64,000 nucleotides of DNA from Candidatus Aenigmatarchaeota archaeon. Its GTDB lineage: Archaea; Aenigmatarchaeota; Aenigmatarchaeia; Aenigmatarchaeales; JACQIB01. The notes under the pieces are model-generated. The model had not been told where the DNA came from. It saw nothing but the letters and a program-made list of their open reading frames with translations, and did not search any database. The position numbers were made by a program, and so were the translations under genes. Positions within the stretch are counted from its first letter, which is position 1. The number at the start of each line of letters is the position of its first letter. Below, in pieces: positions 5,644-62,532 of the stretch. The stretch spans positions 6,767 to 70,766 of the forward strand of contig JACQIB010000003.1 in the NCBI GenBank assembly GCA_016198755.1, read 5' to 3'.

Positions 5644-8330
5644 TCCAACACCTCTCCAATCTTTTCTTTATTTTGTCCAATACCCTGCGCAAGCTCCTGT
5701 CTCCCCCCTCCCCTACCTCCAAGTTTCTCGCATGCAGTTTTCAAAACCTTCCCAACATCTACCCCAGTTTCAATAGCCTTTTTCCCAGCAGATGCAAATA
5801 CAGAAATCCTTTCTCCGGAAATTATAAGGAATATAACAGTATCATCTCCGCTAAGTTCCTTTGAAATTTTTTGTGCATCAGCCCCCTCCAAAGCTTTAAT
5901 CAAAAACTTCAGTCCTTTTACTTCCTCAAACTTGAGCTGCGCAGCAGTTTCCTTTGCAGCAGCTTCTATTTTCCGTTCCTTTAGTTTCAAATGATTTTTC
6001 CAATCTACAAACAGCTTTTCTACAGCTTTTGGTATTTTTCCCTCAGGCACATCCAAAATATCAGAAAGCTCTTTAATTTCCCTTCCCACTCCCTCCAGAT
6101 GTTTTATTGCAGCAGGCCCAGCTTTGTAAACAAGTCTTACAGTCCCGTCAGCAGGCCTCTCAGCCTTTGTAATCAAAATAGGGAACAAATCTTTCGTATT
6201 GTTTCCGTGTGTCCCCCCACAAGCTTCGACACTAAAATCTCCTATCTGCACAATCCTTAACTTATCAGAAGGCACAGCAGCACCCTGATAAATTTTAAAT
6301 CCAAATTTTTTCTCAGCTTTAGTGCGATCCCACACTCTTTTATCAACATTTAAGCCCCTTTCAGCTACTTTATTAGCTAGGGTTTCAATCTTTTCAACAT
6401 CTTCCTTGCTAAGTGGTTGATAGTGATCAATATCTAAATGTGCTCTTTCAGTGTCTTTCTTTGAACCCTCCTGCCAAACCCAAGGACCCAGAACTTTCCG
6501 TGCTGCTGCATTGATTACATGTGTTGCATCATGGTGCAGAGTAATCTGCCATCTGCGTTCCCAGTCAATTTTCCCTTTAATTATCTCCCCTACCTTGAAG
6601 TTTGGATTTTCAACAGCATGTACAATAACACCGTTGATCTTTTCCGAATCAAAAACTCTCTTCCCGTTTAGAGTTCCAAAATCCGGTTCCTGACCGCCGC
6701 CACGCGGATAGAAAAGGGTTTTATCCAGTACTACAAATTTCCCCCCAATAATCTTCAACACTCTGGCCGAAAATTCCCGTTTTTCCATGTCTTCATAATA
6801 AAGCAGCTCTGTTTCAGGAAGACCTGATATATCTATATCAGATACTTTCTTTTCTCCCTTTTCTACAGTATGCAGGTCAGCTACATTTGCCCAAAATCCA
6901 GCAGGAAGTTCTATCTTGAGGCCCTTTTCTGCTGCAACTTGTGCAATCAATTCGGGTGTTATGCCCTGGCTATCATACAATTCAGCAAGCTTATCTTCCG
7001 TTAGTTTTTCATGCCTGCCAAGAAGATTATCTATAGCCCGTTTCGTTCGCTCCGTTGCATTCTTGTAACGTTTCTCTTCCACACCTATTATTTCATGTAT
7101 TGCTGGCAGAGCTTCACGCAATTCCGGAAACATAGGCTTAAGAAATTCTGCCATCTTTTCAGTCGACCAATAAAGATCAAATGGAATGTTATATTTTTCA
7201 ATAAAAGATAATGCTCTTCTCAAAATAACGCGCAGGTTATAGCCACCCCCGATATTTGATGGCAAACCACCATCAGCTATAGCAAGAGCCAAAGTTTTTG
7301 AATGGTCAGCAATAGAATAGAGGGCAGTCATAGGATCTATTTTTTGTACAAGCTCAGACTTGTCAATTCCTAAAATATGGGCAATATCTTCGCGCGTTGC
7401 TTCTAAGTCAGGACATTCATCAAAGTTCAACCTTCCCGCAAGCTTAGAGTATCTAAGGAAAAGCTCCTTGTCGTATTTTATACCAGCTTTAGCTTTCATT
7501 TTATCTATAACTTCCCCATAAACAGCATCGTAAATTGTTGGAGTACCTGCGCTGGCCCATACAAATCTTTCCAAGCCGGCTCCCATATCTATAACTTTTT
7601 GTTGCATAACAGTGTAGTTATCTGGAGAACCGGCAAATTCTGTGAAGACACAATTTCCAAGCTCAACACCAGCTATATGGTATTCTAGACTAGATCCAAA
7701 TGCACCATGGCCCAGCCACGCATCTTCCAGGAAATTTATTGCCTCAGGTTTTATTTTGAAAACTTCTGTAAGCATCCTATAGTCAAGTCCTATAGCATGG
7801 TCTTTCCAGTAACCTTGTTTTCCATCCCACAAGGCGCTTTGCTGTACCATACAGAATGATGTGTCAGCCCTGCCTGTGACGCCAATATTAGGAATGTTAT
7901 TAAACCTAAGGCATGGTTGCAACATGATAGAAGGATTAGCTGGAAATTCAAACGTCAATTTATTTCCGCTCATTCTGTAAAAATTTACAATACCCGCTAT
8001 ATTGAAGTATAGAGGATACCATCTGCAGAGTACAGGATATCTTTCCAGAGGCACATGTTCCTCCTTCACAAAGAACTTTCTTATAGCATCCCATGCACTG
8101 AAGTAGCTATATTTTTTAGGTATGAAGGGTTTTCCAAGAAATTCATATGGCCTGCAGGATGAGTCATTACATTTATCCTGATCTACAACAGCCCAGAACC
8201 ATTTTCCGCAGTTTTTGCAGTTCTGCCTTTTGAAGCCATTCTCTCTGAGTATAGGTAAATCCCAGTATTTTTTCCAGTCTTTCTGGAAGTTGGCTAAAAG
8301 CTCTTTCTTCCCTGTGGGCATAAGAAACAC
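5616..8330 (-). CDS. alaS: Alanyl-tRNA synthetase (archaeal type)
   Basis: 904 aa. Class II core, editing-domain HxxxH (HHDATH) and CGGTH, C-terminal DHHA1-like GGGRGG. The likely true start is the ATG at 8321 (MPTGKK), with a TATA-like element about 27 nt upstream. Confidence 0.95.
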   Translation of the reverse strand: MFLMPTGKKELLANFQKDWKKYWDLPILRENGFKRQNCKNCGKWFWAVVDQDKCNDSSCRPYEFLGKPFIPKKYSYFSAWDAIRKFFVKEEHVPLERYPVLCRWYPLYFNIAGIVNFYRMSGNKLTFEFPANPSIMLQPCLRFNNIPNIGVTGRADTSFCMVQQSALWDGKQGYWKDHAIGLDYRMLTEVFKIKPEAINFLEDAWLGHGAFGSSLEYHIAGVELGNCVFTEFAGSPDNYTVMQQKVIDMGAGLERFVWASAGTPTIYDAVYGEVIDKMKAKAGIKYDKELFLRYSKLAGRLNFDECPDLEATREDIAHILGIDKSELVQKIDPMTALYSIADHSKTLALAIADGGLPSNIGGGYNLRVILRRALSFIEKYNIPFDLYWSTEKMAEFLKPMFPELREALPAIHEIIGVEEKRYKNATERTKRAIDNLLGRHEKLTEDKLAELYDSQGITPELIAQVAAEKGLKIELPAGFWANVADLHTVEKGEKKVSDIDISGLPETELLYYEDMEKREFSARVLKIIGGKFVVLDKTLFYPRGGGQEPDFGTLNGKRVFDSEKINGVIVHAVENPNFKVGEIIKGKIDWERRWQITLHHDATHVINAAARKVLGPWVWQEGSKKDTERAHLDIDHYQPLSKEDVEKIETLANKVAERGLNVDKRVWDRTKAEKKFGFKIYQGAAVPSDKLRIVQIGDFSVEACGGTHGNNTKDLFPILITKAERPADGTVRLVYKAGPAAIKHLEGVGREIKELSDILDVPEGKIPKAVEKLFVDWKNHLKLKERKIEAAAKETAAQLKFEEVKGLKFLIKALEGADAQKISKELSGDDTVIFLIISGERISVFASAGKKAIETGVDVGKVLKTACEKLGGRGGGRQELAQGIGQNKEKIGEVLEWVRKELME

Positions 8331-8394
8331 TGATTTTCTATACTAAAATAGCTAACTGAGTAAGCAGTTTGGTTTCATAGCTAAAAACTAAAGC

Positions 8395-8697
8395 TCAACC
8401 GAACAAAGCTCCGAGTCCCTCCGCGGCTTGCTCTGCTTTTGCCTGCTGATCTTCCTCTTTCTTCTCTTCCTTCTTTGCCTCTCCCGCTCCTGCAGCTGGT
8501 GCTGAAGCAACAGCAACTGGCATTGCAGCCTTTGATATAGCTTCTTCTATGTTAACGCCCTCTAGGCTCACAACCAAAGCCTTTACAAGAGCAGGGTCTG
8601 AATTACCGCCTGCAGCCTGTAGTACCTTTGTTACATTTGCCTCGCTTATCTGCTGCTTTGCATCATGGAGCAAAAGTGCACTGTATATTAATTGCAT
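8395..8697 (-). CDS. rpl12: Ribosomal stalk protein P1 (L12e)
   Basis: [12 protein letters not shown]-terminus, Ala/Glu/Lys-rich hinge, C-terminal tail [16 protein letters not shown] Shine-Dalgarno upstream. Confidence 0.9.
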
Positions 8698-8711
8698 TTT
8701 TTCACCTCCTT

Positions 8712-9566
8712 TTATTTTTTAACTAAATTTTGTAAAGCTTTAGCCTGCCTTCCAGCCTTTGTTAAAACATCCTCTATAATCCCCTTATCCAAAATCCCAG
8801 CTTCCACTCCAACAGCTTTTGCTTCTCTGTAGGATTTCGAAATCATAAGTTCTATTGTTTGCTTTGTTGGGAAGCCTGTGTTTACAGAGAGGTTAATACC
8901 ATGCAGTGTCCCCATCTGTAAATCAGCCAGAACTTTATTCTCATCTATAGTCAAACTATCTTTACCATACACAATAGAATCCTCAAGCATGAAAGGCACA
9001 TTCATACCCACTTCCATTGGCTGGATTTTTAACATAGACAAAGCACCAGCCAAATCCGCGGAAATAACACCCCCCTTCTTTACAACAACCACATCCTTTG
9101 CAACAGCAATTTTTCCACCTTCAACTTTCGCAGGGATTTTAACTTTTGATAAAGCTGAAATAGCAGGTCCTGGAGGAATGTCTGTTGGCCCTGCCCGTAC
9201 AGTTATATCATCTATTGCAATATCCCCGGGTTTTGCACTGGCCTTTGACTTGCTTTTTTGTATAAGCTTGAATATTCTGAATGGATTTTCAGTGGAAAAT
9301 ATAAGCGCAGGCTGTATTCCCAGTTTCTCTTTCAAAACAATCTTTTCAGGAACAATATCAAAAGCACGTTCAACAATGCTGCGTTTTGCAACCTTTATTT
9401 CTGCTTTCCCTCTCAGGCTAACCCTCATTTTTTGCAGTGCATTTGCAGGGAGTTTATACAGGTCAGCTATGCCTATAACAGGATATTTTTTCAGCATTTC
9501 AGCTAAATCTTTCACACCTTTTATTTTTGATTCCGGAGGCTTTGCTCTCCCTTTCTTATCAACCAT
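8712..9566 (-). CDS. rpl10: Ribosomal stalk protein P0 (uL10), short form without acidic C-terminal tail
   Basis: uL10 N-terminal domain and position in the L1-P0-P1 cluster. Ends ...[11 protein letters not shown] with no acidic/LFG tail. Confidence 0.9.
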
Positions 9567-10209
9567 TTTGTCCCACCTTTATTGGTTCTCCCATTGTCAG
9601 CTTCAGATAAACTGTCCTTATCTGTTCCTTTCCTTTTGGAGCAGCTCCCTCAACAGCTTTTATAACAGCTTCCACATTCTCAGCTATATCCCCATCTGCC
9701 ATTTTTTCAGATCCAACAATACAGTTTAAAACAGGAGATTCCTTTACAGCAAGTCTTATTGTTCCTCTAAGGCGTTTAACAAAACCCGCAAGATCAGGAA
9801 GATTTGGCGGTATTGGTTTTGGCATCTTATTTCTGACAGCAAGCACAGGACCGAATGCCCTACCGACAGTTGGCATTAAAGGAGCTTCAGAAAGGAAAGC
9901 AAAACACTGCTTAGCAAGTGAACGTGCAGATTTTTTATCCCTAGAGTATCCTTCAATTTCATCCTTTTTAATAATAACAATATTTTCTATATTTTTTGCA
10001 GCAGGTATAAGTGCATCCAGAAACGCGCCAATTTTCAGCTCTTTTCCAATGCCTTTAGGGAGAGCAATTTCTACCTTTATCTTATTTTCAGGCTTTTTCA
10101 TGTCCATTCCTTTCAAAGCTATAGACAAGTCAAAAGACTGGGAAAAGTTTCTCTTTCCTCCTTTCTCTCTAGCTTCCTTTACAGCTTTCAATATGGCTTC
10201 TGACGTCAT
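9559..10209 (-). CDS. rpl1: Ribosomal protein uL1
   Basis: 216 aa, L1 family pattern (KRNFSQSFDLSIALKG...), cluster context. Confidence 0.9.
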   Translation of the reverse strand: MTSEAILKAVKEAREKGGKRNFSQSFDLSIALKGMDMKKPENKIKVEIALPKGIGKELKIGAFLDALIPAAKNIENIVIIKKDEIEGYSRDKKSARSLAKQCFAFLSEAPLMPTVGRAFGPVLAVRNKMPKPIPPNLPDLAGFVKRLRGTIRLAVKESPVLNCIVGSEKMADGDIAENVEAVIKAVEGAAPKGKEQIRTVYLKLTMGEPIKVGQNG

Positions 10210-18167: not shown

Positions 18168-18292
18168 GCCCCCCTAGTTTTTGGGGAAAGCTCAGCATGG
18201 ATGGAGCGCCTGACTTCTAACGAGCGTTAGAAGATCTGACAACAGATGAAGAAATCAGGAGGTCGCGGGTTCAAATCCCGTGGGGGGCACCA
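18168..18292 (+). tRNA. tRNA-Arg(TCT), two intervening sequences, CCA encoded
   Basis: Acceptor GCCCCCC/GGGGGGC, D arm GCTC-AGCATGGATG-GAGC, anticodon stem CCTGA/TCAGG, anticodon TCT at 18216-18218, T arm GCGGG-TTCAAAT-CCCGT. A 34-nt intron (18220-18253) sits at 37/38 with bulge-helix-bulge helix CTTC:GAAG. An extra 13 nt (18177-18189) lies between position 9 and the D stem, flanked by CCCC/GGGG pairing. Confidence 0.8.
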
Positions 18293-49217: not shown

Positions 49218-49847
49218 ATGGGAATAAGGTTTTTTTATATTATCTTGTTGTTGGTTGTTATAGCGGCTGGATGCACCAATCAGGGCGATTCCGAAAGAAA
49301 GGAGGCAGAGAAAGCGTACCAGAGCGCTGTGCTCAGCGGAGACCCGCAAAATTGCATGAAATTAAAATCATCTGATAGTCAATCTTGTATAACAAAAATA
49401 GCAGAAAACAAAAATGACATTTCAATCTGCGGAATGTTAGAATACAAATATAACTGTATAAGTAGCCTAGCAGTTAAAACAGGCGATGTTGTAGCTTGTT
49501 CACAGCTGGAGGCACAGAGCCAAATCAAGAACAACTGCTTTTTGGGTGCAGCTAACAGAATCTATGAAAAGTTGCATGGTAGAACAGCCTGTGCAGATTC
49601 CAAAGAAAACTTCCAAGAAACCAAAAAGCTTATAGGCTCGAAATATCCAGCAACTACATATGCAGAGAAAACCGTAGATAGATCAGAAGTTAGGGAGGCG
49701 AAAGGGTACATACTCATTTTCTGTTCTACTGGCTGGTCTGTAAGGGGTGAATATAGAGAAGTAATCGGGGACCTCTTTTTCAGTTCTGATGCAAAAGCTG
49801 CGATAAGCATATCAACTGGGGAGGTATTGGAAAACATACCAAGATAA
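49218..49847 (+). CDS. Lipobox-bearing hypothetical surface protein, Cys-rich
   Basis: Signal plus IAAGC; several spaced Cys residues. Confidence 0.5.
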   Translation: MGIRFFYIILLLVVIAAGCTNQGDSERKEAEKAYQSAVLSGDPQNCMKLKSSDSQSCITKIAENKNDISICGMLEYKYNCISSLAVKTGDVVACSQLEAQSQIKNNCFLGAANRIYEKLHGRTACADSKENFQETKKLIGSKYPATTYAEKTVDRSEVREAKGYILIFCSTGWSVRGEYREVIGDLFFSSDAKAAISISTGEVLENIPR

Positions 49848-49870: not shown

Positions 49871-51118
49871 ATGGCAGATTGGATTGAAGTAAACACAGAC
49901 TTGCATTTTCATGGGAAGTTTGCAGGAGCTGTTTCTGAGAGGATGGTACCTGAAGTTATAGCTGAGCAGGCACCCCTGAAAGGTTTGCAATTGGTTTGTA
50001 CAGGAGATATTTTGCATGCAGGCTGGCAGAAGCTTGTGAAAGAACAGCTCTCCCAAGCAGAAGGCGGAATTATGGAGCACAAGAATGGTACAAAGTTTCT
50101 TTTGCAAACTGAGGTAGAAGATAACAATCGGGTACATCATATTGTTTTGTTTCCTGAGTGGAGTAAAGTTGAGGAAGTTAGGGAAAAGTTAAAGGGCAAA
50201 TGCAAGGATTTGGATTCTGATGGCAGGCAAAAGCTCTGGCTTTCAGGAGAGGAGATTGCTCAAATAGCTGTGGATGCTGGCTGTGAAGTTGGGTTTTCCC
50301 ATGCATTCACACCGTTTTTTGGGATTTATGCCCATTATAAATCATACAAGGATTGTTACAAGAGTTTAGCAGATAAAATACACTTTTGTGAGCTTGGTTT
50401 GTCAGCAGACACAAACATGGCTGATAGGATAGCAGAACTCCACAATCTAACTTTCACTAGCAATTCAGATGCTCATAGCCCTTGGCCCAATAAACTTGGG
50501 AGAGAGTTTAATAGATTGCAAATTAAGGAAATTAGCTTTGAAGAAGTTTCAAAAGCTCTTAGAAGAGAAAAAGATAGAAAGTGTATATTGAATGTAAAGT
50601 TTAATCCTGCTGAAGGCAAGTATAACCAAACGCGATGTATGGGCTGCCTTTTGTTTTTCAAAGTAAAGGATGCTGAAAGACTTGGCTGGCGCTGCCCCGA
50701 ATGCAAGAGGCCAATAAAGAAGGGTGTGGATCAGAGAATTGGGGAGCTGGCTGATATAGAAGAAGGAAAGCATCCGGACCACCGCCCAAAATGTTTGCAT
50801 ATAATTCCACTGACTGAAATAATAGCAATTGCAAACGGAATAAAGAATGCATGGTCACAGAAGGTTCAGGATATGTGGAAAATTTATGTGGATAGATTTG
50901 GAAACGAGATTAAAGCCTTAATAGACACACCAATAGAAGAGCTTGCTAAAATTGATTTGAAAACAGCAGAATTGGTTAAAGCTTTTCGCGAGGGAAAGTT
51001 CAGATATATACCGGGAGGGGCAGGGATTTATGGGATACCTGTTCCTCCAGGAAAACCATTAGAGATAAAATACTTTGAAAGCAAACAGGTTAGTTTAAAG
51101 AAGTTTAGCGTCCAGTGA
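49871..51118 (+). CDS. endoQ: Endonuclease Q (PHP-domain, zinc-finger DNA repair endonuclease)
   Basis: DLHFHGKF, GTGDILHAGW, EVEDNNRVHHIVLFP, SHAFTPFF, ELGLSADTNMAD, NSDAHSPWPNKLGREFN, CMGC...CPECK zinc ribbon, GGAGIYG. This layout matches archaeal EndoQ. Confidence 0.85.
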   Translation: MADWIEVNTDLHFHGKFAGAVSERMVPEVIAEQAPLKGLQLVCTGDILHAGWQKLVKEQLSQAEGGIMEHKNGTKFLLQTEVEDNNRVHHIVLFPEWSKVEEVREKLKGKCKDLDSDGRQKLWLSGEEIAQIAVDAGCEVGFSHAFTPFFGIYAHYKSYKDCYKSLADKIHFCELGLSADTNMADRIAELHNLTFTSNSDAHSPWPNKLGREFNRLQIKEISFEEVSKALRREKDRKCILNVKFNPAEGKYNQTRCMGCLLFFKVKDAERLGWRCPECKRPIKKGVDQRIGELADIEEGKHPDHRPKCLHIIPLTEIIAIANGIKNAWSQKVQDMWKIYVDRFGNEIKALIDTPIEELAKIDLKTAELVKAFREGKFRYIPGGAGIYGIPVPPGKPLEIKYFESKQVSLKKFSVQ

Positions 51119-52013
51119 CAGTAACAGACTTTACAATCTCGTCAAAATACCCGTATTTTGCTGTTATTGTTATTGGTGTAAGCTCTTTGCTCACAGGCAT
51201 CTTATCAGCAACAATATCGCATACAACTGTTGCACGTTTCTTTACAAGCTCAACTTCCTGGCTCCTGCAGTCTGATTGTATAGAAAGAGAAGAAACTGCA
51301 GATGGTATGCTTACATTCAGCAAAATCTTGTTTCTCTCACCTTCAGCAAGGGAAAGATCCGAAGAAGTTATTGAACCAGCTTTATAAACTCCCAATCCAT
51401 TCCCAACATCCTCTAAATCAATCTGCAAAGTAAAAGTGTCTCTTGCAAGTTCCACAACATACGGATCTGGTATTGATTTTATTGTTATCTTTACAGGTCC
51501 TCTCCCATAAGTGAACTTGCTTTTTTCACTGGTTTTTTCACCCAGAGGATATGCGTAAATCACACCGTTCACATCAGAAACATAGTCATAGTATATCCTT
51601 CCAGCTATATTATCAGGCCTTACCTGCCCCTTTGGTATCTGCGGTGCCTTCAGGCTCCACCTGAAAGATTGTGTATCGGCTGGTCTGTTTGTCGCAGGAT
51701 CAGAAGGTCTCAAATCCCTTGTGAAACTTTTATTCCTTTCCAAATCTGCTGGCCCCCAGTCTGTCGGAACAATAAGCCAAATCACACCAGAATCCTGCTT
51801 AACAACAGAATCTCCCTGATTTTCAATATTCATGGAAACAGAAACAGTTGAGTTGCTTCTTACAGTATCTGGCTGCAAAGCGAATTCAGTTATTTTTACT
51901 GTGTTGCCAGATGTGCCTGTTACAGGCGGTTGGCCTGTGCACCCTGCAACAGCTATTGCTGCTACAATAACAACCGCAAAAATTATTCTCTTGTCCATTT
52001 TCTCACATCTCAA
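51105..52013 (-). CDS. Lipobox surface protein, member of the repeated beta-rich module family
   Basis: Signal plus AVAGC. The likely start is the ATG at 51998, with a TATA-like box centred about 32 nt upstream. Ends with ...ITITAKYGYFDEIVKSVTVTGR, the module shared with neighbouring genes. Confidence 0.6.
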   Translation of the reverse strand: MRCEKMDKRIIFAVVIVAAIAVAGCTGQPPVTGTSGNTVKITEFALQPDTVRSNSTVSVSMNIENQGDSVVKQDSGVIWLIVPTDWGPADLERNKSFTRDLRPSDPATNRPADTQSFRWSLKAPQIPKGQVRPDNIAGRIYYDYVSDVNGVIYAYPLGEKTSEKSKFTYGRGPVKITIKSIPDPYVVELARDTFTLQIDLEDVGNGLGVYKAGSITSSDLSLAEGERNKILLNVSIPSAVSSLSIQSDCRSQEVELVKKRATVVCDIVADKMPVSKELTPITITAKYGYFDEIVKSVTVTGR

Positions 52014-52072
52014 TTAAGTAACCGCATATATAAATCCTTTCCCCAGAGCTTGAAAATATAACAGTGTTATAT

Positions 52073-52456
52073 CTAACCCAGCCCACCCCCAGGAAACAGA
52101 GGTCCAATACAGTTCATGCATGCATTTGCTATCAGAATTATAGTAAAAATAACAGCCAGAAAAATAAGCCAGTCCCTTCTCTTGAAGTAGGTTTCAGCAT
52201 ACCATATAACAAAAGCTGACCAAGCCACAAAATACCCTGCAAGAGGAACAATTGGATAGAAAACCATTTTAAACAGATCCAGTCCAATGTTCCATAATCC
52301 CCATTCAATCCCAGACCATGAAACAATAAGGAAAGCAAGTGCCCATCCAAACATCCATTCAGACCTTTTCTCTTTAGCCTCTTTCAACAGATACAGACAA
52401 ATTCCCATTGCAGCAAGGCTATAGGCAAGCCCAACAAAGAGCAGTTCACTGCCCAT
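52073..52456 (-). CDS. Small four-TM membrane protein
   Basis: 127 aa with four hydrophobic helices. Starts directly after the stop of the upstream gene (no gap). Confidence 0.55.
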   Translation of the reverse strand: MGSELLFVGLAYSLAAMGICLYLLKEAKEKRSEWMFGWALAFLIVSWSGIEWGLWNIGLDLFKMVFYPIVPLAGYFVAWSAFVIWYAETYFKRRDWLIFLAVIFTIILIANACMNCIGPLFPGGGLG

Positions 52457-53323
52457 TCAGCGCACCTGCTCAACCTTAACTTTTGTAGAACTGTCTATTC
52501 TGTACCTATAAGATCCGGAAAGCCTTAATGGTTCTGAAACAATTGGTGTTTTAGCAACAGTTGTAAACAGGCAGGTGGATTTTTTAGTAGCCCCCCTTGT
52601 TAATCCAATATCCACATTCAATCCCAATACCCCAGTCACTGGAGAATAGTCATCGCATCTTACAAGCTGCAAAGCATTCTTAGGATAGTCTATTAAAACA
52701 CTCCCTTCAGAAACTTTTCCCACAAGCCCCTTTCCATTGTTTTTATAGTCTATAAACATTGAGATGTTTCCCCCTTCCCTGAAAGGGAGAGATTTGGAAA
52801 ATGAAAAGTCAGCTAAAAACGGCCCAGCCCGTGTAAACTTTGTCTTCGGTATCTCTCCCAGAGAGTTTTCTTTATCCCTTCTCTCAAACTCCTCCTCCTG
52901 TAAAACTGTTACCGTTTGTACAGAAGAAAAGTTTCCAGTATACTCAGCTCTTATTTTCAGCTCACACTCCTGTTCAAAATCAATAGCTCCCAGCCTGTAC
53001 TTTGCTTTCATTATTTCTGTTCTATTTGCTTTTAACTTGGGAAAGAAAAACACCTGCTGTGTTGTGTTTACAAACAGGCAGGAATCATAAACATCTACCT
53101 TAGCATCCTGCAAATCAACTTTGGGCTTTAATAAAAGTGTTAAAGTAAAATCTTTATTTTCTCTTGCTGTTTCAATATGTTCAGCAGAAAGTGAAATCTC
53201 CTCCTTTTCTCCACCAGCAATCTCCCCTGTAAAGAACGCAAGCTGCCCCTCCTGACCAACGCAGCCAGCTATGAAAACAGCAGCTGCAACTACCCCAAAT
53301 AAAGCTATAATCCTTTTTTCCAT
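52457..53323 (-). CDS. Lipobox surface protein, repeated beta-rich module family
   Basis: Signal plus FIAGC. Modules end CELKIRAEYTGNFSSVQTVTV and LRLSGSYRYRIDSSTKVKV. Confidence 0.6.
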   Translation of the reverse strand: MEKRIIALFGVVAAAVFIAGCVGQEGQLAFFTGEIAGGEKEEISLSAEHIETARENKDFTLTLLLKPKVDLQDAKVDVYDSCLFVNTTQQVFFFPKLKANRTEIMKAKYRLGAIDFEQECELKIRAEYTGNFSSVQTVTVLQEEEFERRDKENSLGEIPKTKFTRAGPFLADFSFSKSLPFREGGNISMFIDYKNNGKGLVGKVSEGSVLIDYPKNALQLVRCDDYSPVTGVLGLNVDIGLTRGATKKSTCLFTTVAKTPIVSEPLRLSGSYRYRIDSSTKVKVEQVR

Positions 53324-53332
53324 TAAATCCCC

Positions 53333-54388
53333 TTAAACAGCAGGCTTTATGCTTACAGTAACAGTCCCGCGCATTTCGTAGTTGTATTCCATTTCCGCAC
53401 TCATAAAGAATTTTTTGCTTGTTCCCTCTTCCACAGTAGGCATTATAAACTTGCACTGAAGCTTTGGAGTTTTTTTAGCTGAAAACACAAGCTCTTCATT
53501 GTTTGTAAGTATCCAGTTATTCTGATCAATTCCAGTTCCTCTCTCCTTTGATGCTGAAAATTTATCACACGCTCCCTTATTTGGATCCCAGTCAAATTCT
53601 GCCGGAACCTTTAGCTTTAGCTGCCCAGGTTTTATACTTCCGTAAATTCCCTGTCCCTTGTTCTCAACCCATAAAAAGAAAACCATGTTCCTTTTGCTTT
53701 CCAGTGGCAGTGCGCCTGCTATGGGTGTTGCAGAATCTGCAAAGTAAATTTTCAAAGGCCCGCTGTCTATATTCTCTGTTGGTGAAAACTGCGGAGGTTT
53801 TCCAGCCCCTTCCAAAGTCCTTCTGTAAACAGGATCTATAACCTGTGTATCCATGCTTGTAACAGCTCTTGTAGTAAAGTTAAGCTTATAGTCTATAGCA
53901 CAGGATGCAGTTAACCCAGCAATTCTTTCCTTTGCTGGAGATGTTAAATCCAAATCCACAATCTCCTGCGCCCCAGGCCTCAAAACAGTTGAAAACTTAT
54001 TTCCATCCACAGTTTTTATAACAAACCCTGGGTAAACAGTCCCTACCTTTAAATCTGCAGCATTTCCCCCCCTTATTTTATCCAGTGTACAGACCCCAGT
54101 ATCCGTAATCCATACAGAAACAGCTCCAAGTTCTTTTGCTTTCTCAGGTTTTTCAGTGTTCGTTGCAGTAAACTGGACTCTAAACGGGGATTCTGTTATA
54201 ATTGGAGGAGAAGGATTAATAACTGGGGATGAAACAGCAATCAAATCGCTCCCGGCTTCCACAACTTTTACTTCTGTCTGGCCCTTTACTCCAGTATCCT
54301 GTACAGTGCAGCCAGCAGCAGCCAGCGCCAATATCAAAACAATTGCTAATGTTCCCTTCATTTTCATCAATCTCCATTCTGTTTGCAA
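53333..54388 (-). CDS. Lipobox surface protein, repeated beta-rich module family
   Basis: Signal plus AAAGC, with a likely start at 54361-54367. Modules end SCAIDYKLNFTTRAV and AEMEYNYEMRGTVTVSI. Confidence 0.6.
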   Translation of the reverse strand: MQTEWRLMKMKGTLAIVLILALAAAGCTVQDTGVKGQTEVKVVEAGSDLIAVSSPVINPSPPIITESPFRVQFTATNTEKPEKAKELGAVSVWITDTGVCTLDKIRGGNAADLKVGTVYPGFVIKTVDGNKFSTVLRPGAQEIVDLDLTSPAKERIAGLTASCAIDYKLNFTTRAVTSMDTQVIDPVYRRTLEGAGKPPQFSPTENIDSGPLKIYFADSATPIAGALPLESKRNMVFFLWVENKGQGIYGSIKPGQLKLKVPAEFDWDPNKGACDKFSASKERGTGIDQNNWILTNNEELVFSAKKTPKLQCKFIMPTVEEGTSKKFFMSAEMEYNYEMRGTVTVSIKPAV

Positions 54389-54399
54389 CTATAAAACCC

Positions 54400-56988
54400 T
54401 TACTGTGCAGGTGCCCTCTCAAGAGCCAGCTCAGCTCCTGTTATTGTGTTCTCAAACTGGTAGTCAAGATTTGCTGTTATAAGGTCTTTCTTTATGTTGG
54501 TTCCTTCCGGATACCTTATCTGGAGCACAACCTGCCCAATCTGTCCTGAATCCAAATCCTTCAAATTGTAGACTAGTTCTATATTTCCTGCTTTCAATGA
54601 ACTTGGTGAAGAAGCACTTTTCAATTCTGCTTTATCTGTTCTTACCTCAGTATAAGCAACTCCTTCAAATCCAAGTGTTGGAATAAATATATACAGTTTT
54701 CCATCTGTTATTTTTCCAGTTTTTTCCTTAAAATTGTTCCTTACATTTACAGTAACCAGCGTTTCCTCTCCATACCCAACAGGCTGTTGCGCAATGTTCA
54801 TATCTATTCCCACAGGCCCACCGCTGTACTTGCTGTCAGGCTTTAATTCTGCAGCAGTAAGTTTTTTATCCAGTATAAGTTGCTCCCTGTCAGATGGGCT
54901 AACAACTGTTATTGGCAGCGAAGCATTCGCAAAATAATCAAACCCATACGTTGCCTTTGCCCTTACAAGCCAGCCACCCATTTTATATCCAATTGCTCTA
55001 TACTCGAGCCCAAAATCATCCCTTAGAATAGTGCACTGCTCATTTGTTCCAGGGAAGTTTTTGTTTTCCAGCACATCTTTACAAGCTCCCTCACTGCCAA
55101 TAGGCTTTATTGTATCTGGTTTAACCTTTTTCTTTGTTTCTGTGCCAATTGTAACTGGCTCAGTATCACCCTTAAGGCAAACACAAGTATTCAGTTCCCT
55201 TCCAAGTGTTTTATCAGAACTCTCAAACCTAAAGTTCAAAATCCTTGTTTCCCCTTTCTGGAAAGGCAACTCCCATGTACACCCTCCATTTCCATCCTTC
55301 TTGAATAATTTTCCACCTCCACATGAGGTAAAGTTTCCAACAACCCCATCCAGCTTATTTTCAGCTCCAGCAGTTCCAGACTTTATACTTGTTTTTATCG
55401 GGTCTATAGCTATAATGTTCTCCAAATTAATTCCCACTCTTCTAATTGGAAAGTCCCCCTCATTCTTCAGCTGAAGACTTCCAACCAAAGGCTGCGTTGG
55501 ATCTATTGTAGTGGCAGCTTGTATAATGTTCATTTTCGCTGTCAATGCTTTATCAGACCCCTCTTTCTTCTGCGCCTTCCCGCATGGGTTCTGTTTTTTG
55601 TGCACTTCACATAGCACAGGATTTGCAGCGCAGTAAAACAGCTCATTTGTCTGGCAGCTTGTATCAGATATAATATCGCTAATAGGGTTCGCAACCACAC
55701 TCATTGCAGCATACACCTGCGGCCAATAGTCACCAAACACAGCATTTCCAACAGTTCCTGTTTGTGCAAAAGTGAAGGCAAGTATAGCGAAAACCATGAC
55801 TATAATTCCTATATATGGCCTTGCAGACCTGTCAGATATAGCCCCAACAATTATAGAAAATAGCATTACAATTCCTAGAGCAATCTGCACAGTTCCGGTA
55901 CCGCTCAATAAGGAAGATACGACAGGCAGCGCACCGAATGAAGCAAATCCAACAAACATTATAGATCCAGCTATTTTCCAGTTGTTGTGAACATCTTCAT
56001 CATTTAGAGCATCGTGTATAGATTTGCCTCCCACAAAGTTAATGGTGATTTTCAATGGTGCAATTACCTTACCATCTTTATCTCTTTCTATGTTCCTCGT
56101 TGGCATAACAACATAAAATGCTGTTGTAAGGAAGAACAAAGATAATGAAGGGTTCGCATCTTTAACAAAACCAAATATCACAAATAAGAGTACTATTACT
56201 ACAATAGATACGATACCCACATAACCATTTTTAGTAAGTGTAGTTATTGCCGATAAAGCAAATACTATAAGTATTGCTATTGGAATTAGTATCAAGTTGT
56301 TTCCCAAAGTGCCCCCCGAAAAAACAATCAATATTAAGATTGCCATTACAAAACCAAAGAACATCCTTGCCCAGGACTGTATTGCTTTGTAAGGCTCTGT
56401 AACTTCATAGCTCCCTGGAAGAGAGAAGTATGTAATAAAAAATACAACTATCGAAAGTATTGGGTGAATATAGTAAGTACCCCATCCTATAAACGAAGCA
56501 GCCAAAAGCTTCATGAATCCTCTCAGATAAAGGAAACCTAAATGTTCTGATCCAAGAGTCATTTTTGTAGTTACAAGTGTGTCAGGCGGTATCAGGGTGC
56601 CGCAATCATGACAGTGTTTTGCCATTTCTTCATTATCTGCATTGCAATAACTACAAATTTTTCCCCTTGGTTTTTGTTGTATAACATCATTTTCATCTGG
56701 GAGTAGAATAACAAACGCAAAAATTATTACACCTATGCCTATTAGAGCATATCCAAAAATAATAGCTACAACACCGCCTATAAGAAATATGACAAGTTCA
56801 AGTGCCCTTCTCTTCAATTTATCAGAAATCAGTTTTCCATGTTCTATTGCTTTTGGGCTTACATTACCATCTTCATATTGTTTTGTTCTCTCTCGCTGTA
56901 GAGTCAGGTCTGCTTTACATGCAGCATTAGGGCACACAGCAACTACGCCATTATTTGGTGTCCCACAAATAGTACAACTATGAGTCAT
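54400..56988 (-). CDS. Polytopic membrane protein with two N-terminal zinc ribbons and a large C-terminal extracytoplasmic region carrying the same beta-rich modules
   Basis: CTICG...CPNAAC and CSYCN...CHDCG. About 10-12 TM helices. A Cys-rich segment is followed by modules ending AKATYGFDYFANASLPITV and ANLDYQFENTITGAELAL. Confidence 0.65.
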   Translation of the reverse strand: MTHSCTICGTPNNGVVAVCPNAACKADLTLQRERTKQYEDGNVSPKAIEHGKLISDKLKRRALELVIFLIGGVVAIIFGYALIGIGVIIFAFVILLPDENDVIQQKPRGKICSYCNADNEEMAKHCHDCGTLIPPDTLVTTKMTLGSEHLGFLYLRGFMKLLAASFIGWGTYYIHPILSIVVFFITYFSLPGSYEVTEPYKAIQSWARMFFGFVMAILILIVFSGGTLGNNLILIPIAILIVFALSAITTLTKNGYVGIVSIVVIVLLFVIFGFVKDANPSLSLFFLTTAFYVVMPTRNIERDKDGKVIAPLKITINFVGGKSIHDALNDEDVHNNWKIAGSIMFVGFASFGALPVVSSLLSGTGTVQIALGIVMLFSIIVGAISDRSARPYIGIIVMVFAILAFTFAQTGTVGNAVFGDYWPQVYAAMSVVANPISDIISDTSCQTNELFYCAANPVLCEVHKKQNPCGKAQKKEGSDKALTAKMNIIQAATTIDPTQPLVGSLQLKNEGDFPIRRVGINLENIIAIDPIKTSIKSGTAGAENKLDGVVGNFTSCGGGKLFKKDGNGGCTWELPFQKGETRILNFRFESSDKTLGRELNTCVCLKGDTEPVTIGTETKKKVKPDTIKPIGSEGACKDVLENKNFPGTNEQCTILRDDFGLEYRAIGYKMGGWLVRAKATYGFDYFANASLPITVVSPSDREQLILDKKLTAAELKPDSKYSGGPVGIDMNIAQQPVGYGEETLVTVNVRNNFKEKTGKITDGKLYIFIPTLGFEGVAYTEVRTDKAELKSASSPSSLKAGNIELVYNLKDLDSGQIGQVVLQIRYPEGTNIKKDLITANLDYQFENTITGAELALERAPAQ

Positions 56989-57047
56989 CTTAAATCATCT
57001 ACAAAACTCTTAGGAGTGCAAGAACAAAAACCTTTGCTTTAGGGGAT

Positions 57048-57767
57048 TTATGCTATCTGGAGGAAGGCTATTTTGAAGAGGGAGTCTGAGGCTGGCAGGA
57101 GTTGGAGCTTGTTTTTCTTCTCTATTGGGATTTGCAGGAAAATGCTTCCTTCAGGTTCCCCTTCGAAAATTGTTTTCCCGTTTAGTATAACCTTCAGTTC
57201 CCCGAAGTTCTTTTCAAAAGCAATTTCAATGCTCTTTTTTCCGGTTTTCTTTGCCTCAAATTCTTTTATATAGGCCTTTCCTTTGAGCCCATGAACTTCA
57301 GCTGAAACAGAGTATTTGTTCTCTTCCCATGGGAGAAAAGCCCCGCCAGCTTTTATTTCAATTATATTGTTCTCCCCGATAAGCTTTGGATCCAGTTCAA
57401 AATCCATTCTGCTTGCATTTGGATACCCTCTATAAACTTCCAGCCCATTCAGGGAAATAATAACCTGTCCCTGTTTGTTTCCTGAAAGGGAAATAATCCT
57501 TAAAACAGCCCTGTCAAATTCCCCGCCAGCAAACCTCTTTTCAATTGTTCCACTCTTGAACAAACTACTGTTCACATCGCCTGAAACTGTTATAAGTTCT
57601 TTGTCCACAGCGCTCAATTCAAAATCATCCTCAAGCAAAACTCTATCATATAGGGGCTTTGCAACAAAAAAACCAGTACTCGGAAGAGTTAAAGACCAGG
57701 CTGCAAGAAGTATTACTAATCCTATTATTGCCACTAAAATAAACTGGGTAGTGAAAAAGCTTGCCAT
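57048..57767 (-). CDS. Single-TM anchored extracytoplasmic protein (first gene of the surface cluster)
   Basis: The start at 57767 (MASFFTTQFILVAIIGLVILLAAW) avoids overlap with pelota. The ORF track extends it to 57833. Confidence 0.55.
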   Translation of the reverse strand: MASFFTTQFILVAIIGLVILLAAWSLTLPSTGFFVAKPLYDRVLLEDDFELSAVDKELITVSGDVNSSLFKSGTIEKRFAGGEFDRAVLRIISLSGNKQGQVIISLNGLEVYRGYPNASRMDFELDPKLIGENNIIEIKAGGAFLPWEENKYSVSAEVHGLKGKAYIKEFEAKKTGKKSIEIAFEKNFGELKVILNGKTIFEGEPEGSIFLQIPIEKKNKLQLLPASDSLFKIAFLQIA

Positions 57768-57804
57768 AGGCAGGCTTTTATTAGTAAACTTTAAATATAC
57801 CTCT

Positions 57805-58809
57805 ATGAAGTCAGCATTTGACCTGAAAAACAACCTAGGAAAGATAACTCCACAGAGTATGGACGATCTCTATGTTTTGTTAGATATACTGATTCCTGGT
57901 TGTTTGGTTAAAGCCAAAACAGTAAGGGTTGCTGAGGTTAGAAGGGGGGAGGAAAAGGAGAGGGTTAGAAAGGAAATGGTTCTGCTGAAAATTAAAGTAG
58001 AGAAAATAGAGCTTGCACAGGATCTAAGATTAGGGGGAAAAATTGTTGAATCACCCCCAGAAGTAGAGCACAGCTACCATACAATAGAGGTTGAACCCTT
58101 TACCTATATAGAAGTTGAAAAAGAATGGAAAAAATGGGAAATTGACAAGATAAAGGCTGCAGCAAAGAAAACAGAGCCTGTTTTAGCTTTAATTCTGGAT
58201 GAGAGTGAGGCTGATTTGTTTTTAGTAAAGGACCGCACAGAGCATGTTTTGCACCTGAAAGGCCCAGGAACTGGAAAAAGCCTTGGGTTAAAGGGTGGTA
58301 AACAGGAATACTATAACGAGATTATTGGGATTTTGAAAAAGAGACCTGAAAGACATATCGTTCTGGCTGGTCCAGGGTTTGCAAAGGATGAGCTAAAGAA
58401 CATTCTAAGGGAAAAGGAAAAGGAGCTATTTTCTAAATTGACAGTGGAAAGGGTTTATGAGACAGAGGAAGCCGGGCTTTCTGAACTGTTGGATAAAGGG
58501 ATTTTACAGAGGCTTTTGAAAACCTCAAGAATAGAGGAAGAAACAGAAGCTGTAAAGCTGTTAATGGAACAGATAGCAAGGAAAGGGAAAGCTGTTTATG
58601 GTATTGCTGAGACTGAAAGGGCTTTGGAAGCTGGGGCTGTGGAAAAGCTGTTAATAGCTGACAAGAATGTTAGGAAATTTGAAAAACTGCTGGAAAAGGC
58701 TGAAAAAACAGGTGCTGAAGTAATGATTATTTCCTCTGCCCATCCAGCAGGGGAGAGGTTTGCTGGACTGGGTGGAATAGGGGGATTGTTAAGGTATAGG
58801 ATAGAGTGA
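57805..58809 (+). CDS. pelA: Pelota (Dom34) ribosome rescue factor
   Basis: MKSAFDLKNNLGKITPQSMDDLYVLLDIL... followed by eRF1-like domains 2 and 3. The ORF-track extension to 57475 is antisense to the neighbouring gene. A TATA-like TTTTATTAGTAAAC/TTTAAATATA lies just upstream. Confidence 0.9.
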   Translation: MKSAFDLKNNLGKITPQSMDDLYVLLDILIPGCLVKAKTVRVAEVRRGEEKERVRKEMVLLKIKVEKIELAQDLRLGGKIVESPPEVEHSYHTIEVEPFTYIEVEKEWKKWEIDKIKAAAKKTEPVLALILDESEADLFLVKDRTEHVLHLKGPGTGKSLGLKGGKQEYYNEIIGILKKRPERHIVLAGPGFAKDELKNILREKEKELFSKLTVERVYETEEAGLSELLDKGILQRLLKTSRIEEETEAVKLLMEQIARKGKAVYGIAETERALEAGAVEKLLIADKNVRKFEKLLEKAEKTGAEVMIISSAHPAGERFAGLGGIGGLLRYRIE

Positions 58810-61017: not shown

Positions 61018-61105
61018 TGGTGGACTCGGGGGGATTTGAACCCCCGATCTCATGCATGCCATGTGCAATTATTATGCACGCGTCATTCCGCTAGACCACG
61101 AGCCC
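61018..61105 (-). tRNA. tRNA-Ala(GGC), one 13-nt intron in the anticodon loop (33/34), CCA encoded
   Basis: Acceptor GGGCTCG/CGAGTCC with the G3:U70 Ala identity pair. Anticodon stem CGTGC/GCATG. Loop AT[13 nt, 61061-61073]GGCAT with BHB helix GTGC:GCAC, GGC at 61060-61058. T arm GGGGG-TTCAAAT-CCCCC. 75+13=88. Confidence 0.7.
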
Positions 61106-61796: not shown

Positions 61797-61966
61797 TGGT
61801 GGGCCGGGCAGGATTTTCAGCCCTTTTGGGGTTTGCAAAGACCTTTTCGGGAAAAGGGATTTGCTTTGAACCTGCGACTCCCACCTTTCCGTCCGCTTCG
61901 TGTGCTGAACCCTCAACACTGTTGCGGATGTAAGGGTGATGTCATACCGGACTAGACCACCGGCCC
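61797..61966 (-). tRNA. tRNA-Val(TAC), two introns (37/38 and T-loop 59/60), CCA encoded
   Basis: Exons are identical to tRNA-Val(GAC) except positions 34 and 38. Loop CTTACA[42 nt, 61887-61928]A, with TAC at 61932-61930. T arm GCAGG-TTCAAA[51 nt, 61814-61864]T-CCTGC. 77+42+51=170. Confidence 0.8.
61814..61864 (-). repeat. T-loop intron family A, copy in tRNA-Val(TAC)
   Basis: GCAAATCCCTTTTCCCGAAAAGGTCTTTGCAAACCCCAAAAGGGCTGAAAA. Confidence 0.85.
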
Positions 61967-62388: not shown

Positions 62389-62532
62389 TGGTGCGCCCGA
62401 CGGGATTTTCAGCCCCTCAAAGGGAGAGGGTGGAGGGAGATACGTAGTTTCTCCTCCTTTGAACCCGTGTCGTAAGCTTTTTCTGCGGAAATCGCATGGG
62501 AAGCTCAAATCCTACCACTAGACTACGGACGC
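62389..62532 (-). tRNA. tRNA-Gly(CCC), two introns (37/38 and T-loop 59/60), CCA encoded
   Basis: Acceptor GCGTCCG/CGGGCGC. Anticodon stem TGAGC/GCTTA, loop TTCCCA[18 nt, 62479-62496]A, with CCC at 62500-62498. T arm ACGGG-TTCAAA[52 nt, 62406-62457]T-CCCGT. 74+18+52=144. Confidence 0.8.
62406..62457 (-). repeat. T-loop intron family B, copy in tRNA-Gly(CCC)
   Basis: Its reverse complement is identical to 49114-49165. Confidence 0.9.

Follow-up and report, generated by a model that had tools for sequence, protein, structure and literature searches.

A six-gene cluster of Aenigmarchaeota predicted to encode a membrane-anchored surface complex with paralogous ectodomains

Do six adjacent genes for membrane and surface proteins without known relatives encode one apparatus, and if so, of what kind? 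This question is raised by a 64,000-nucleotide (nt) stretch of DNA from Candidatus Aenigmatarchaeota archaeon (GenBank assembly GCA_016198755.1, contig JACQIB010000003.1, positions 6,767 to 70,766), which is the whole stretch that was analyzed and is referred to here as the window, with positions counted from its first letter. A preliminary description, made from the sequence letters, had proposed six co-oriented minus-strand genes at 51105-57767, and all six open reading frames (ORFs) were found; we call them g1 to g6 in the order in which they are read. We put at about one in two the probability that they encode a single membrane-anchored surface complex, specific to the phylum, which would be a core envelope structure providing a contact or adhesion interface.

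57048..57767, minus strand: g1, ORF of 239 amino acids (aa), bitopic, one N-terminal transmembrane helix
54400..56988, minus strand: g2, ORF of 862 aa, polytopic platform
53333..54361, minus strand: g3, lipobox protein of 342 aa if read from the ATG at 54361
52457..53323, minus strand: g4, lipobox protein, 288 aa, paralogue of g3
52073..52456, minus strand: g5, 127 aa, four transmembrane helices
51105..51998, minus strand: g6, lipobox paralogue of g3 and g4, 297 aa if read from the ATG at 51998

The sizes in the preliminary description stood as those of the longest ORFs. Its order did not, because the 127-aa gene sits between the 288-aa gene and the gene given as 302 aa rather than at the end.

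Lipoproteins and a shared two-sandwich ectodomain

The cluster had been said to hold three lipobox proteins, and our results agree. Using as the pattern an N-terminal hydrophobic signal followed by [LVI][ASTVI][GAS]C, we found the motifs AAGC, IAGC and VAGC in g3, g4 and g6, respectively, each after such a signal. The lipobox is kept in nearly all orthologues of the three genes, and their products are predicted to be lipid-anchored surface proteins. They share the canonical signal peptide and [LIV][AS]GC motif with lipoproteins of the AliA/AliB pathway; AliA and AliB are needed for archaeal lipoprotein lipidation, and lipoproteins are reported to be prevalent in DPANN archaea (PMC12462473). 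What that study describes is a route of lipoprotein biogenesis; it does not deal with the present family or gene cluster.

To compare the proteins as families, alignments were made of the window genes with their neighbours in related loci, and these were compared with each other by hhalign. The three lipoproteins proved strongly related (99.9% and E = 1.5e-31 for g3 and g4, 99.7% and E = 1.7e-25 for g3 and g6, 99.4% and E = 5e-21 for g4 and g6), which established their paralogy in this all-against-all comparison. They also matched the g2 ectodomain, residues 470-862, with values of 98.7% and E = 2.5e-15 (g3), 97.5% and E = 2.8e-11 (g4) and 97.4% and E = 3.6e-11 (g6). All six alignments were collinear along the entire mature proteins, and profile-to-sequence matches inside the window also supported the paralogy. 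Judged from these profiles, mature g3, g4 and g6 are true paralogues of the two-domain ectodomain of g2, and the module that the preliminary description saw in the lipoproteins and the outer region of the large protein is thereby confirmed.

Comparison of half-profiles resolved the two domains, D1 and D2. The D2 module is common to g2, g3, g4 and g6; five of the six pairs scored 93-98% and the remaining one, g2-D2 with g6-D2, 67.8%. The D2 of g2 matched g3-D2 at 97.1%, g4-D2 at 95.3% and g6-D1 at 92.2%, while D1 connected g3, g4 and g6 at 89-90%. Since g6-D1 matched D2 modules (92-95%), D1 and D2 are homologous to each other. The most divergent module is g2-D1, with 58% to g2-D2 and 29% to g6-D1. 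A word-indexed homologue search added 17 unannotated relatives of the lipoproteins; for g2 it gave two close relatives, even with a 62-sequence profile.

The aromatic-alternating strands noted earlier at the ends of the modules aligned with each other, and their Y-x-Y core did not vary among 22 lipoproteins and hardly varied among 62 g2 homologues. A Cys pair is present once per module; those of the lipoproteins are (residue numbers):

g3: Cys pairs 91/154 and 265/303, in two predicted beta-sandwich modules
g4: Cys pairs 82/120 and 223/251
g6: Cys pair 244/260; the N-terminal module is the most CARDB-like

One Cys of the pair lies 0-25 residues ahead of the aromatic strand. The description of a conserved Cys that precedes the strand was thus only partly correct. 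The idea that the module builds the whole cluster held for g2, g3, g4 and g6 but not for g1 and g5, which lack it. A BLAST hint that g1 carries the module (E = 0.14) was rejected when profile comparison gave no support, and a derivation of g5 from the membrane domain of g2 was rejected by hhalign comparison of the families. Candidates for extra module paralogues elsewhere in the window were also rejected, as these matched only at the level of signal peptides.

As the preliminary description had stated, the proteins belong to no known family that we could find: none of the six scored above threshold in Pfam and NCBIfam scans, and PDB sequence searches (g2, and profiles of g2, the lipoproteins and g1) returned only a marginal match to AbpX (E = 0.014-0.03), which we rejected as generic beta-sandwich noise. 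Foldseek comparison of the full g2 model with the PDB found generic tandem beta-sandwich proteins only (E of 2e-6 or higher, TM-scores of about 0.1), namely integrin alpha legs, transglutaminase C-terminal barrels, arrestin/VPS26, mu-adaptin and cohesin dyads, and comparison with viral models found the same generic class, including a DUF11 protein. From the models, the module is best described as a generic CARDB/DUF11-like beta-sandwich, not a new fold.

The module belongs to the same fold class as CARDB (PF07705) and DUF11 repeats and has a '..N.G.G..' strand-turn motif in common with them. At E ≤ 1, CARDB matched none of g2, g3, g4 and g6. Among the 22 lipoproteins of the orthologous families, three matched CARDB at E ≤ 0.1 and 19 gave no match; only a g6 orthologue (L007:9575-10531) passed the cut-off, with 24.5 against 22.7 bits over profile positions 9-49 of 101. 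Whereas CARDB and DUF11 form variable repeat arrays, the unit here is a fixed pair of domains with a Y[ST]GGP motif, a terminal Y-x-Y strand and a Cys pair per domain, and there are four paralogues of it that are not interchangeable, one being fused to an orphan 11-helix membrane domain. What we found was therefore a marginal CARDB match together with a strongly conserved neighbourhood (see below), and not a confident match to a generic family with no conserved neighbourhood.

The g2 platform and its partners g1 and g5

The g2 protein is 100% identical to the hypothetical protein HY362_02235 of a Candidatus Aenigmarchaeota metagenome-assembled genome. An AlphaFold2 model made with 62 homologues had a pLDDT of 82.5 and a pTM of 0.78, and a separate model of residues 136-476 (78 sequences) had a pLDDT of 86.7 and a pTM of 0.83. 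The features of g2 are:

56917..56976, minus strand: zinc-ribbon-like motif 1 (C5, C8, C19, C24; residues 5-24), cytoplasmic, poorly modelled
56602..56655, minus strand: zinc-ribbon-like motif 2 (C112, C115, C126, C129; residues 112-129), in the cytoplasmic loop between transmembrane helices 2 and 3
55765..56805, minus strand: membrane domain (residues 62-408), 11 transmembrane helices (AlphaFold)
55579..55764, minus strand: juxtamembrane motif TG.VG.AVFG.YWPQV and stalk helix, with four Cys (445, 453, 460, 469)
54898..55563, minus strand: ectodomain D1 (residues 476-697), beta-sandwich with terminal strand AKATYGFDYFANASLPITV
54403..54843, minus strand: ectodomain D2 (residues 716-862), beta-sandwich with Y[ST]GGP at its start and ANLDYQFENTITGAELAL at its end

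Because the loops contain 13 Lys and Arg residues on the inside and one on the outside, the modelled topology has the N-terminus in the cytoplasm and the C-terminus outside, with cytoplasmic ribbons and external sandwiches. In the model, the stalk consists of helices 410-455 (45 residues) and 457-466, and two short helices separate D1 from D2. A Cys-rich insert of D1 (609-661) was modelled with low confidence and is disordered, and C556 and C570 are invariant in the 62 sequences. Thus modelled, four related two-sandwich units would be displayed at the outer face of the membrane, one on a polytopic anchor and three on predicted lipid anchors.

The conserved motifs of the membrane domain (YF.LP..Y....PYK..EAW.R, AFF..P and G.EGRPY.G) lie on its cytoplasmic face, and the majority of the nearly invariant g2 columns are located in the juxtamembrane and stalk region. 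Foldseek comparison of the membrane domain with the PDB gave nothing at E < 0.001. The closest of the non-significant neighbours, which also included TatC and BetP, was EccD of the mycobacterial ESX (type VII) system. EccD is likewise an 11-helix scaffold with a cytoplasmic N-terminal domain, but its match was not significant (E = 0.48, probability 0.3, TM-score of about 0.2) and came with no sequence similarity, and no Ecc or ESX component was found among the six cluster genes by Pfam and NCBIfam.

These properties of g2 bear on the possibility that the cluster serves uptake or export, in which case g2 would be a permease or channel and the surface sandwiches would capture or guide a substrate, e.g., lipids or building blocks that an archaeon with a reduced genome needs. 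Such a role would suit a polytopic domain of 11 helices whose core is conserved, the best structural neighbours, non-significant as they are, are subunits of translocons and transporters, and lipoproteins beside a polytopic protein are reminiscent of binding-protein-dependent uptake. Furthermore, NCBI records name two g2 homologues 'MFS transporter'. However, profile scans of the family (62 + 43 + 7 members) gave no match to MFS, 105 members had no Pfam match to MFS or any other transporter, and no MFS structure appeared among the Foldseek matches of the 11-helix g2 protein; nothing here supports that label. The cluster also has no ATPase or other energising component detectable by Pfam and NCBIfam, and what is conserved in g2 is the cytoplasmic face and the outer juxtamembrane segment rather than charged or polar positions within the membrane. 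CARDB-like beta-sandwiches are not known as folds of substrate-binding proteins, and a 'permease' whose ectodomain is paralogous to the lipoproteins points to a structural assembly. We regard uptake or export as improbable.

Two cytoplasmic zinc ribbons, 10-12 transmembrane helices and a large outer domain had been described for the 862-aa protein, and all of these can be recognized in it. Both motifs satisfy the ribbon pattern of two CxxC-type knuckles about 10 residues apart (PF13240/PF12773). The stretch of motif 1 had no Pfam match, and residues 112-133, around motif 2, gave sub-threshold matches to DZR and Zn_Ribbon_1 (E = 0.037); g2 stayed below the Pfam cut-offs, with 14.6 against 27.3 bits for DZR and 9.8 against 25 for Zn_Ribbon_1. 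Some g2 homologues scored significantly for a zinc ribbon, up to E = 1e-10. As a defining feature of the family, however, the ribbon did not stand, since the motif was present in 43 of the 113 full-length members (38%). In locus L003 the N-terminus of g2 is split into a 67-aa zinc-ribbon gene (9344-9547) and a 131-aa transmembrane gene (9596-9991) that matches g2 residues 51-105, followed by a 710-aa g2 that begins at the third helix. Given their restriction to 43 of 113 members and their occurrence as a separate gene in L003, the zinc ribbons appear from sequence to be accessory and dispensable to the family. Pfam scans of the family found only zinc modules and a small number of add-on domains. 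One member, P0020 (1888 aa), has a K/R-rich low-complexity N-terminal extension of about 1000 residues ahead of the zinc ribbon and membrane domain.

The N-terminal variation, which takes in single and double zinc ribbons, C2H2 fingers and the K/R-rich extension of P0020, together with the conservation of the membrane domain on its cytoplasmic side, would be expected of a signalling or regulatory system, in which the outer sandwiches would act as a sensor coupled through g2 to cytoplasmic zinc modules whose binding partner is a regulator or nucleic acid, with the lipoproteins as co-sensors or ligands. Zinc modules missing from 62% of full-length members, and encoded separately in L003, fit poorly with such a design, no kinase, helix-turn-helix or sigma/anti-sigma partner is present in the cluster, and 11 transmembrane helices with three paralogous lipoproteins exceed what a sensor needs. 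Signalling therefore seems to us decidedly improbable, more so than transport.

The remaining two genes, g1 and g5, are co-conserved partners without paralogy to the module proteins. The g1 protein has an uncharged to acidic N-terminus, a transmembrane helix at about residues 10-28, a conserved P29 and no Cys. It consists of two homologous repeats (about 45-140 and 141-239; internal hhalign 96.6%, E = 4.9e-10), so that by sequence it is an internal duplication of a repeat unlike the shared module. No match was found for g1 in Pfam, NCBIfam or the PDB, and g1 orthologues adjoin every type-A g2 homologue. The LPSTG that follows its transmembrane helix was considered as a sortase signal and rejected, because it is not conserved and a sortase signal would belong at the opposite end.

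A coarse hydropathy window shows three peaks in g5, and the fourth transmembrane helix is seen in the g5 alignment. Its invariant motifs are the W-rich SWSG(I/L)EW(G/A)LW, P(I/A)VP and a C-terminal CM(N/D)C, which is predicted to lie at the outer face of the membrane. g5 is the most conserved gene of the cluster, with 55% identity to its L010 orthologue where g2 has 26%, and it had no Pfam or NCBIfam match. Its CxxC might service the Cys pairs of the ectodomains. The likeness to DsbB/VKOR is confined to four transmembrane helices and an outward-facing CxxC; no profile match to these proteins was obtained, and g5 has a single conserved Cys pair.

This invariant CxxC on a four-helix scaffold, and a Cys pair in every ectodomain module, reminiscent of DsbB/VKOR-type oxidation, raise the possibility of a lipoprotein-handling machine, with g2 and possibly g5 sorting, inserting, oxidising or retaining g3, g4 and g6 as clients. 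Genes of the AliA_AliB family (PF01889) lie beside or inside the cluster in four of 13 loci, adjoining g2 homologues, and in L009 the gene sits on the opposite strand between the g2 and g3 orthologues:

L008:13915-14754: AliA_AliB gene
L009:13634-14608: AliA_AliB gene
L012:16553-17407: AliA_AliB gene
L013:13921-14793: AliA_AliB gene

An AliA/AliB gene was also sought in the window itself and none was found there, which speaks against this explanation, as does the absence of g5 from several clusters. Moreover, g5 is unlike DsbB/VKOR, and g2 unlike Lgt, Lnt and Lol, by Pfam, NCBIfam and Foldseek, and an ectodomain of g2 that is paralogous to the supposed clients fits co-assembly better than an enzyme-substrate relation. 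A machine that handles the lipoproteins is accordingly hard to credit.

Gene order, start sites and selection across the phylum

A HMMER search with the g2 profile against 1.84 billion representatives returned 192 proteins at E ≤ 1e-3, of which 110 also reached E ≤ 1e-10, and all seven relatives that bear an organism name are from Aenigmarchaeota (Aenigmatarchaeota). By these sequence comparisons the family and the cluster are specific to that phylum and conserved across it. The best-conserved core of g2, residues 335-525, runs from the last three helices through the juxtamembrane motif and the stalk into the beginning of D1. Family hallmarks are YF.LP..Y....PYK..EAW.R, G.EGRPY.G and TG.VG.A.FG.WWPQV, and Y[ST]GGP occurs about 145 residues from the C-terminus in 75 of the 113 full-length members.

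The gene order g1-g2-g3-g4-(g5)-g6 recurs in L003, L006, L007, L009, L010 and L011 beside g2 homologues that are 20-33% identical to g2, which bears out the expectation of a conserved neighbourhood. These six loci also share their flanks, a divergent Pelota gene before g1 and a convergent MJ0043_C/PHP-type gene after g6. Orthology was confirmed by BLAST and by family hidden Markov models (HMMs); L011, which was outside HMM training, scored 8e-43 to 2e-78. Informative variations occur: in L006 g5 comes after g6, the clusters of L007, L009 and L011 lack g5, L007 and L009 carry a duplicated g6, and L010 has an insertion between g1 and g2 (5752-8883) with three small pilin-like genes (e.g., MKGIEGLPLKYLILIL...), a gene for a 607-aa protein with about 10 transmembrane helices and a 47-aa gene, which may be related to type IV filaments. 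A subgroup has a long form of g2 (1200-1350 aa). In L009 and L012 the long form is accompanied by Pelota and g1, and in L012 g3, g4 and g6 were undetected; in L008 and L013 it lies between ThrRS-ADK and AliA_AliB with a type IV filament locus. In L008, five tandem paralogues of about 455 aa (38-44% identical, with overlapping ends and N-termini of the form MDFxFGxFDSGF...) are found upstream of this form (L008:1-6186), with no Pfam match on record.

In the window, the gaps from g1 to g6 are 59, 11, 9, 0 and 59 nt, and the start codon of g5 directly abuts the stop of g4. Motifs resembling Shine-Dalgarno sequences precede g3 (GGAG, 11-14 nt 5' of the start), g4 (AGGGG) and g5 (AGGTG). The longest ORF of g3, of 351 aa, starts at a TTG at 54388, and its orthologues begin at MKG, corresponding to 54361. 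For g6, the longest ORF has 302 aa from a TTG at 52013, and the ATG at 51998 (297 aa) is the more likely start. Two TATA-like boxes were found:

57789..57799, minus strand: TATA-like box TATATTTAAAG, 22-32 nt 5' of the g1 ATG, in the divergent spacer toward the Pelota gene
52026..52034, minus strand: TATA-like box TTTATATAT, 28-36 nt 5' of the g6 ATG

Comparable A/T boxes occur at about -30 from the g1 orthologues of L001, L003, L007, L009 and L011, and comparable boxes precede the g6 orthologues of L001, L003, L006, L007 and L010. TATATTTAAAG is a likely promoter for a leaderless g1 transcript, and TTTATATAT a possible internal promoter for g6. To judge by the look of the sequence, g2 to g5 are translationally coupled and g1 begins the unit, while g6 may own an extra promoter. 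Scans for sigma-70 promoters and terminators gave the same counts as in shuffled sequence; the host is an archaeon. At its 3' end, g6 overlaps the convergent MJ0043_C/PHP-type gene (49871-51118, plus strand) by 14 nt (51105-51118).

Selection was estimated as dN/dS by the Nei-Gojobori method against two close relatives, L001 and L002. The values, with dS near saturation for L001, were 0.13 for g1, 0.16 for g2, 0.06 for g3, 0.08 for g4, 0.05-0.07 for g5 and 0.09 for g6, and 0.03-0.13 for flanking genes. By this sequence measure, the six genes are real and under purifying selection, and they are not rapidly diversifying adhesins.

Could the six genes nevertheless form no complex at all, being independent CARDB-like surface proteins held together by tandem duplication and phylum-wide synteny? 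Such an explanation would be in keeping with the generic fold and the one orthologue that matches CARDB, with the synteny of the flanking housekeeping genes and with a promoter that g6 may own. Several results oppose it: each paralogue is a distinct orthologous line, kept in the same order at 20-33% identity, gaps of 0-11 nt are combined with Shine-Dalgarno-like motifs, the non-paralogous membrane genes g1 and g5 are co-conserved, the paralogue set takes in the ectodomain of a polytopic protein, and dN/dS is as low as in housekeeping genes. We consider independent proteins rather unlikely, about as much so as signalling. The fixed internal order, the gaps of 0-11 nt and the keeping of each paralogue as a separate line argue instead that the cluster is a functional unit.

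Several observations concern neighbouring genes. The Pelota gene diverges from g1 over a very short spacer in nearly all type-A loci (13-190 nt in L006, L007, L009, L011 and L012). In the window the ORF list runs Pelota (57475-58809) into g1, and the real Pelota start is probably near 57.8 kb. Between ACT-domain genes and the MJ0043_C-type gene lies a gene for a 209-aa Cys-rich lipobox protein (49218-49847, plus strand; MGIRFFYIILLLVVIAAGC...); the close relatives L001 and L002 lack such a gene and have a spacer of about 180-240 nt there. Rfam identified four tRNA genes, at 18189-18281 on the plus strand and at 61021-61105, 61800-61966 and 62392-62532 on the minus strand. At least two of them are overlong (141 and 167 nt) and probably intron-bearing. 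ARAGORN recovered a single one of these genes and gave it as tRNA-Tyr with an unusual 'ata' anticodon, probably a mis-call.

A surface complex and its possible role in contact

If the six genes encode one complex, the four paralogous ectodomains would assemble as a fixed hetero-oligomer atop the g2 membrane domain, since each paralogue is kept as its own orthologous line in a fixed order. Separate paralogue lines in a fixed order are the usual signature of non-interchangeable subunits. The paired ectodomain cysteines would form disulfides, and the cytoplasmic face of g2 with its variable zinc modules might dock a cytoplasmic partner. The weakest step is the last: the complex would occupy the space between the membrane and the S-layer and act there as a contact or adhesion interface. 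In some lineages it could also be armed with murein hydrolase domains that engage a bacterial wall.

The latter suggestion comes from two distant g2 family members with a domain C-terminal to the membrane domain, an SLT domain in P0148 (L012:9001-13008; residues 1132-1233, E = 2.8e-19) and a Glucosaminidase domain in P0114 (L013:9001-13044; residues 1118-1191, E = 2.3e-14). Archaea do not make murein. Woesearchaeota and Pacearchaeota have large extracellular proteins with murein lytic transglycosylase domains, which were proposed to attach to or degrade bacterial walls (PMC8204110). They resemble the two g2 members in combining a DPANN surface location with a bacterial-type hydrolase, but belong to another lineage, reach 3000 aa and come with no stated polytopic platform or paralogous lipoproteins; in addition, a hydrolase domain is lacking in the g2 of the window and in over 100 further members. 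Genes for other envelope systems occur near the cluster, with type IV filament genes adjoining L008 and L013, near L009 and within L010, and S_layer_C genes at most 10 kb away in L006 and L010. Among the six cluster proteins themselves, no match to S_layer_C (PF05124) and no type IV filament ATPase, platform protein or pilin bearing a class III signal peptide was found.

In its architecture, the polytopic zinc-ribbon platform with related lipid-anchored subunits of the preliminary description was correct. The description had gone further, to an envelope or cell-cell contact apparatus that would matter for host attachment. The conserved, unit-like cluster, the CARDB-like fold of adhesin type, the hydrolase fusions and the nearby type IV filament, AliA/AliB and S-layer genes are in line with the apparatus, whereas its single copy, its housekeeping synteny and the dN/dS values of 0.05-0.16 are not what host recognition would lead one to expect. 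Host attachment is therefore a hypothesis that is only partly supported, and a core envelope function fits the selection, single copy and synteny better than a fast-evolving host-recognition adhesin.

Several points weigh against a contact complex. The strong purifying selection, and the synteny of a single-copy cluster, speak against a function in host-specific recognition. A murein hydrolase is present in just two of about 112 scanned family members; P0114 is in another genomic context and has no adjacent lipoproteins, and P0148 is accompanied by g1 but by no detectable g3, g4 or g6. A contact role may not be transferable to the short form of the window. The gene order could in part be plain phylum synteny, because the Pelota and MJ0043_C flanks are conserved too. 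Three lineages lack g5 in the cluster, g6 and perhaps also g1 may have their own promoters, and the orientation of g1 is ambiguous owing to its acidic N-terminus. Assembly into a complex is itself something that we infer from sequence. Even so, each of the four rival explanations, that is, transport, signalling, lipoprotein handling and independent surface proteins, accounts for fewer observations than an envelope complex does.

Is such a complex already known in another guise? Literature searches found no account of this gene cluster. A protein-family module specific to Aenigmarchaeota, module 128, has been reported as lineage-specific and unannotated, with many membrane-bound or extracellular members (PMC8204110); its restriction to the phylum resembles that of the families described here, which it may include, and the paper gives no cluster, paralogy or structure. 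The building block is an ordinary lipid-anchored beta-sandwich; for the complete system we found no described counterpart in Pfam, NCBIfam, the PDB or the literature.

A bolder version of the contact proposal is that the cluster is the cell-cell contact machine of Aenigmarchaeota, in which an 11-helix platform of orphan fold would carry a fixed hetero-tetramer of the sandwich units, one of them held by protein and three by lipid, that binds the envelope of a partner cell, hydrolases would open the bacterial wall in some lineages, and the cytoplasmic face and zinc modules would couple contact inward. We think this unlikely, if less so than any of the rivals. If true, a contact machine with hydrolases would mean that some members of the phylum have bacterial hosts, and the hydrolase-bearing relatives do suggest engagement of bacterial walls in some lineages.

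How DPANN archaea build their envelopes and hold on to partner cells is largely an open question, and our literature searches found no description of an Aenigmarchaeota culture. The cluster offers a phylum-wide, strongly constrained target whose membrane domain had no relative among solved structures in Foldseek searches, and a polytopic protein with three lipoproteins that have one ectodomain in common is a rare design. It provides a defined set of proteins to seek in Aenigmarchaeota metaproteomes and cryo-tomograms, and the public 'MFS transporter' annotation should be corrected. Should the contact role prove wrong, the cluster would still stand as a new envelope complex, apparently an essential one, in a major lineage that is uncultured.

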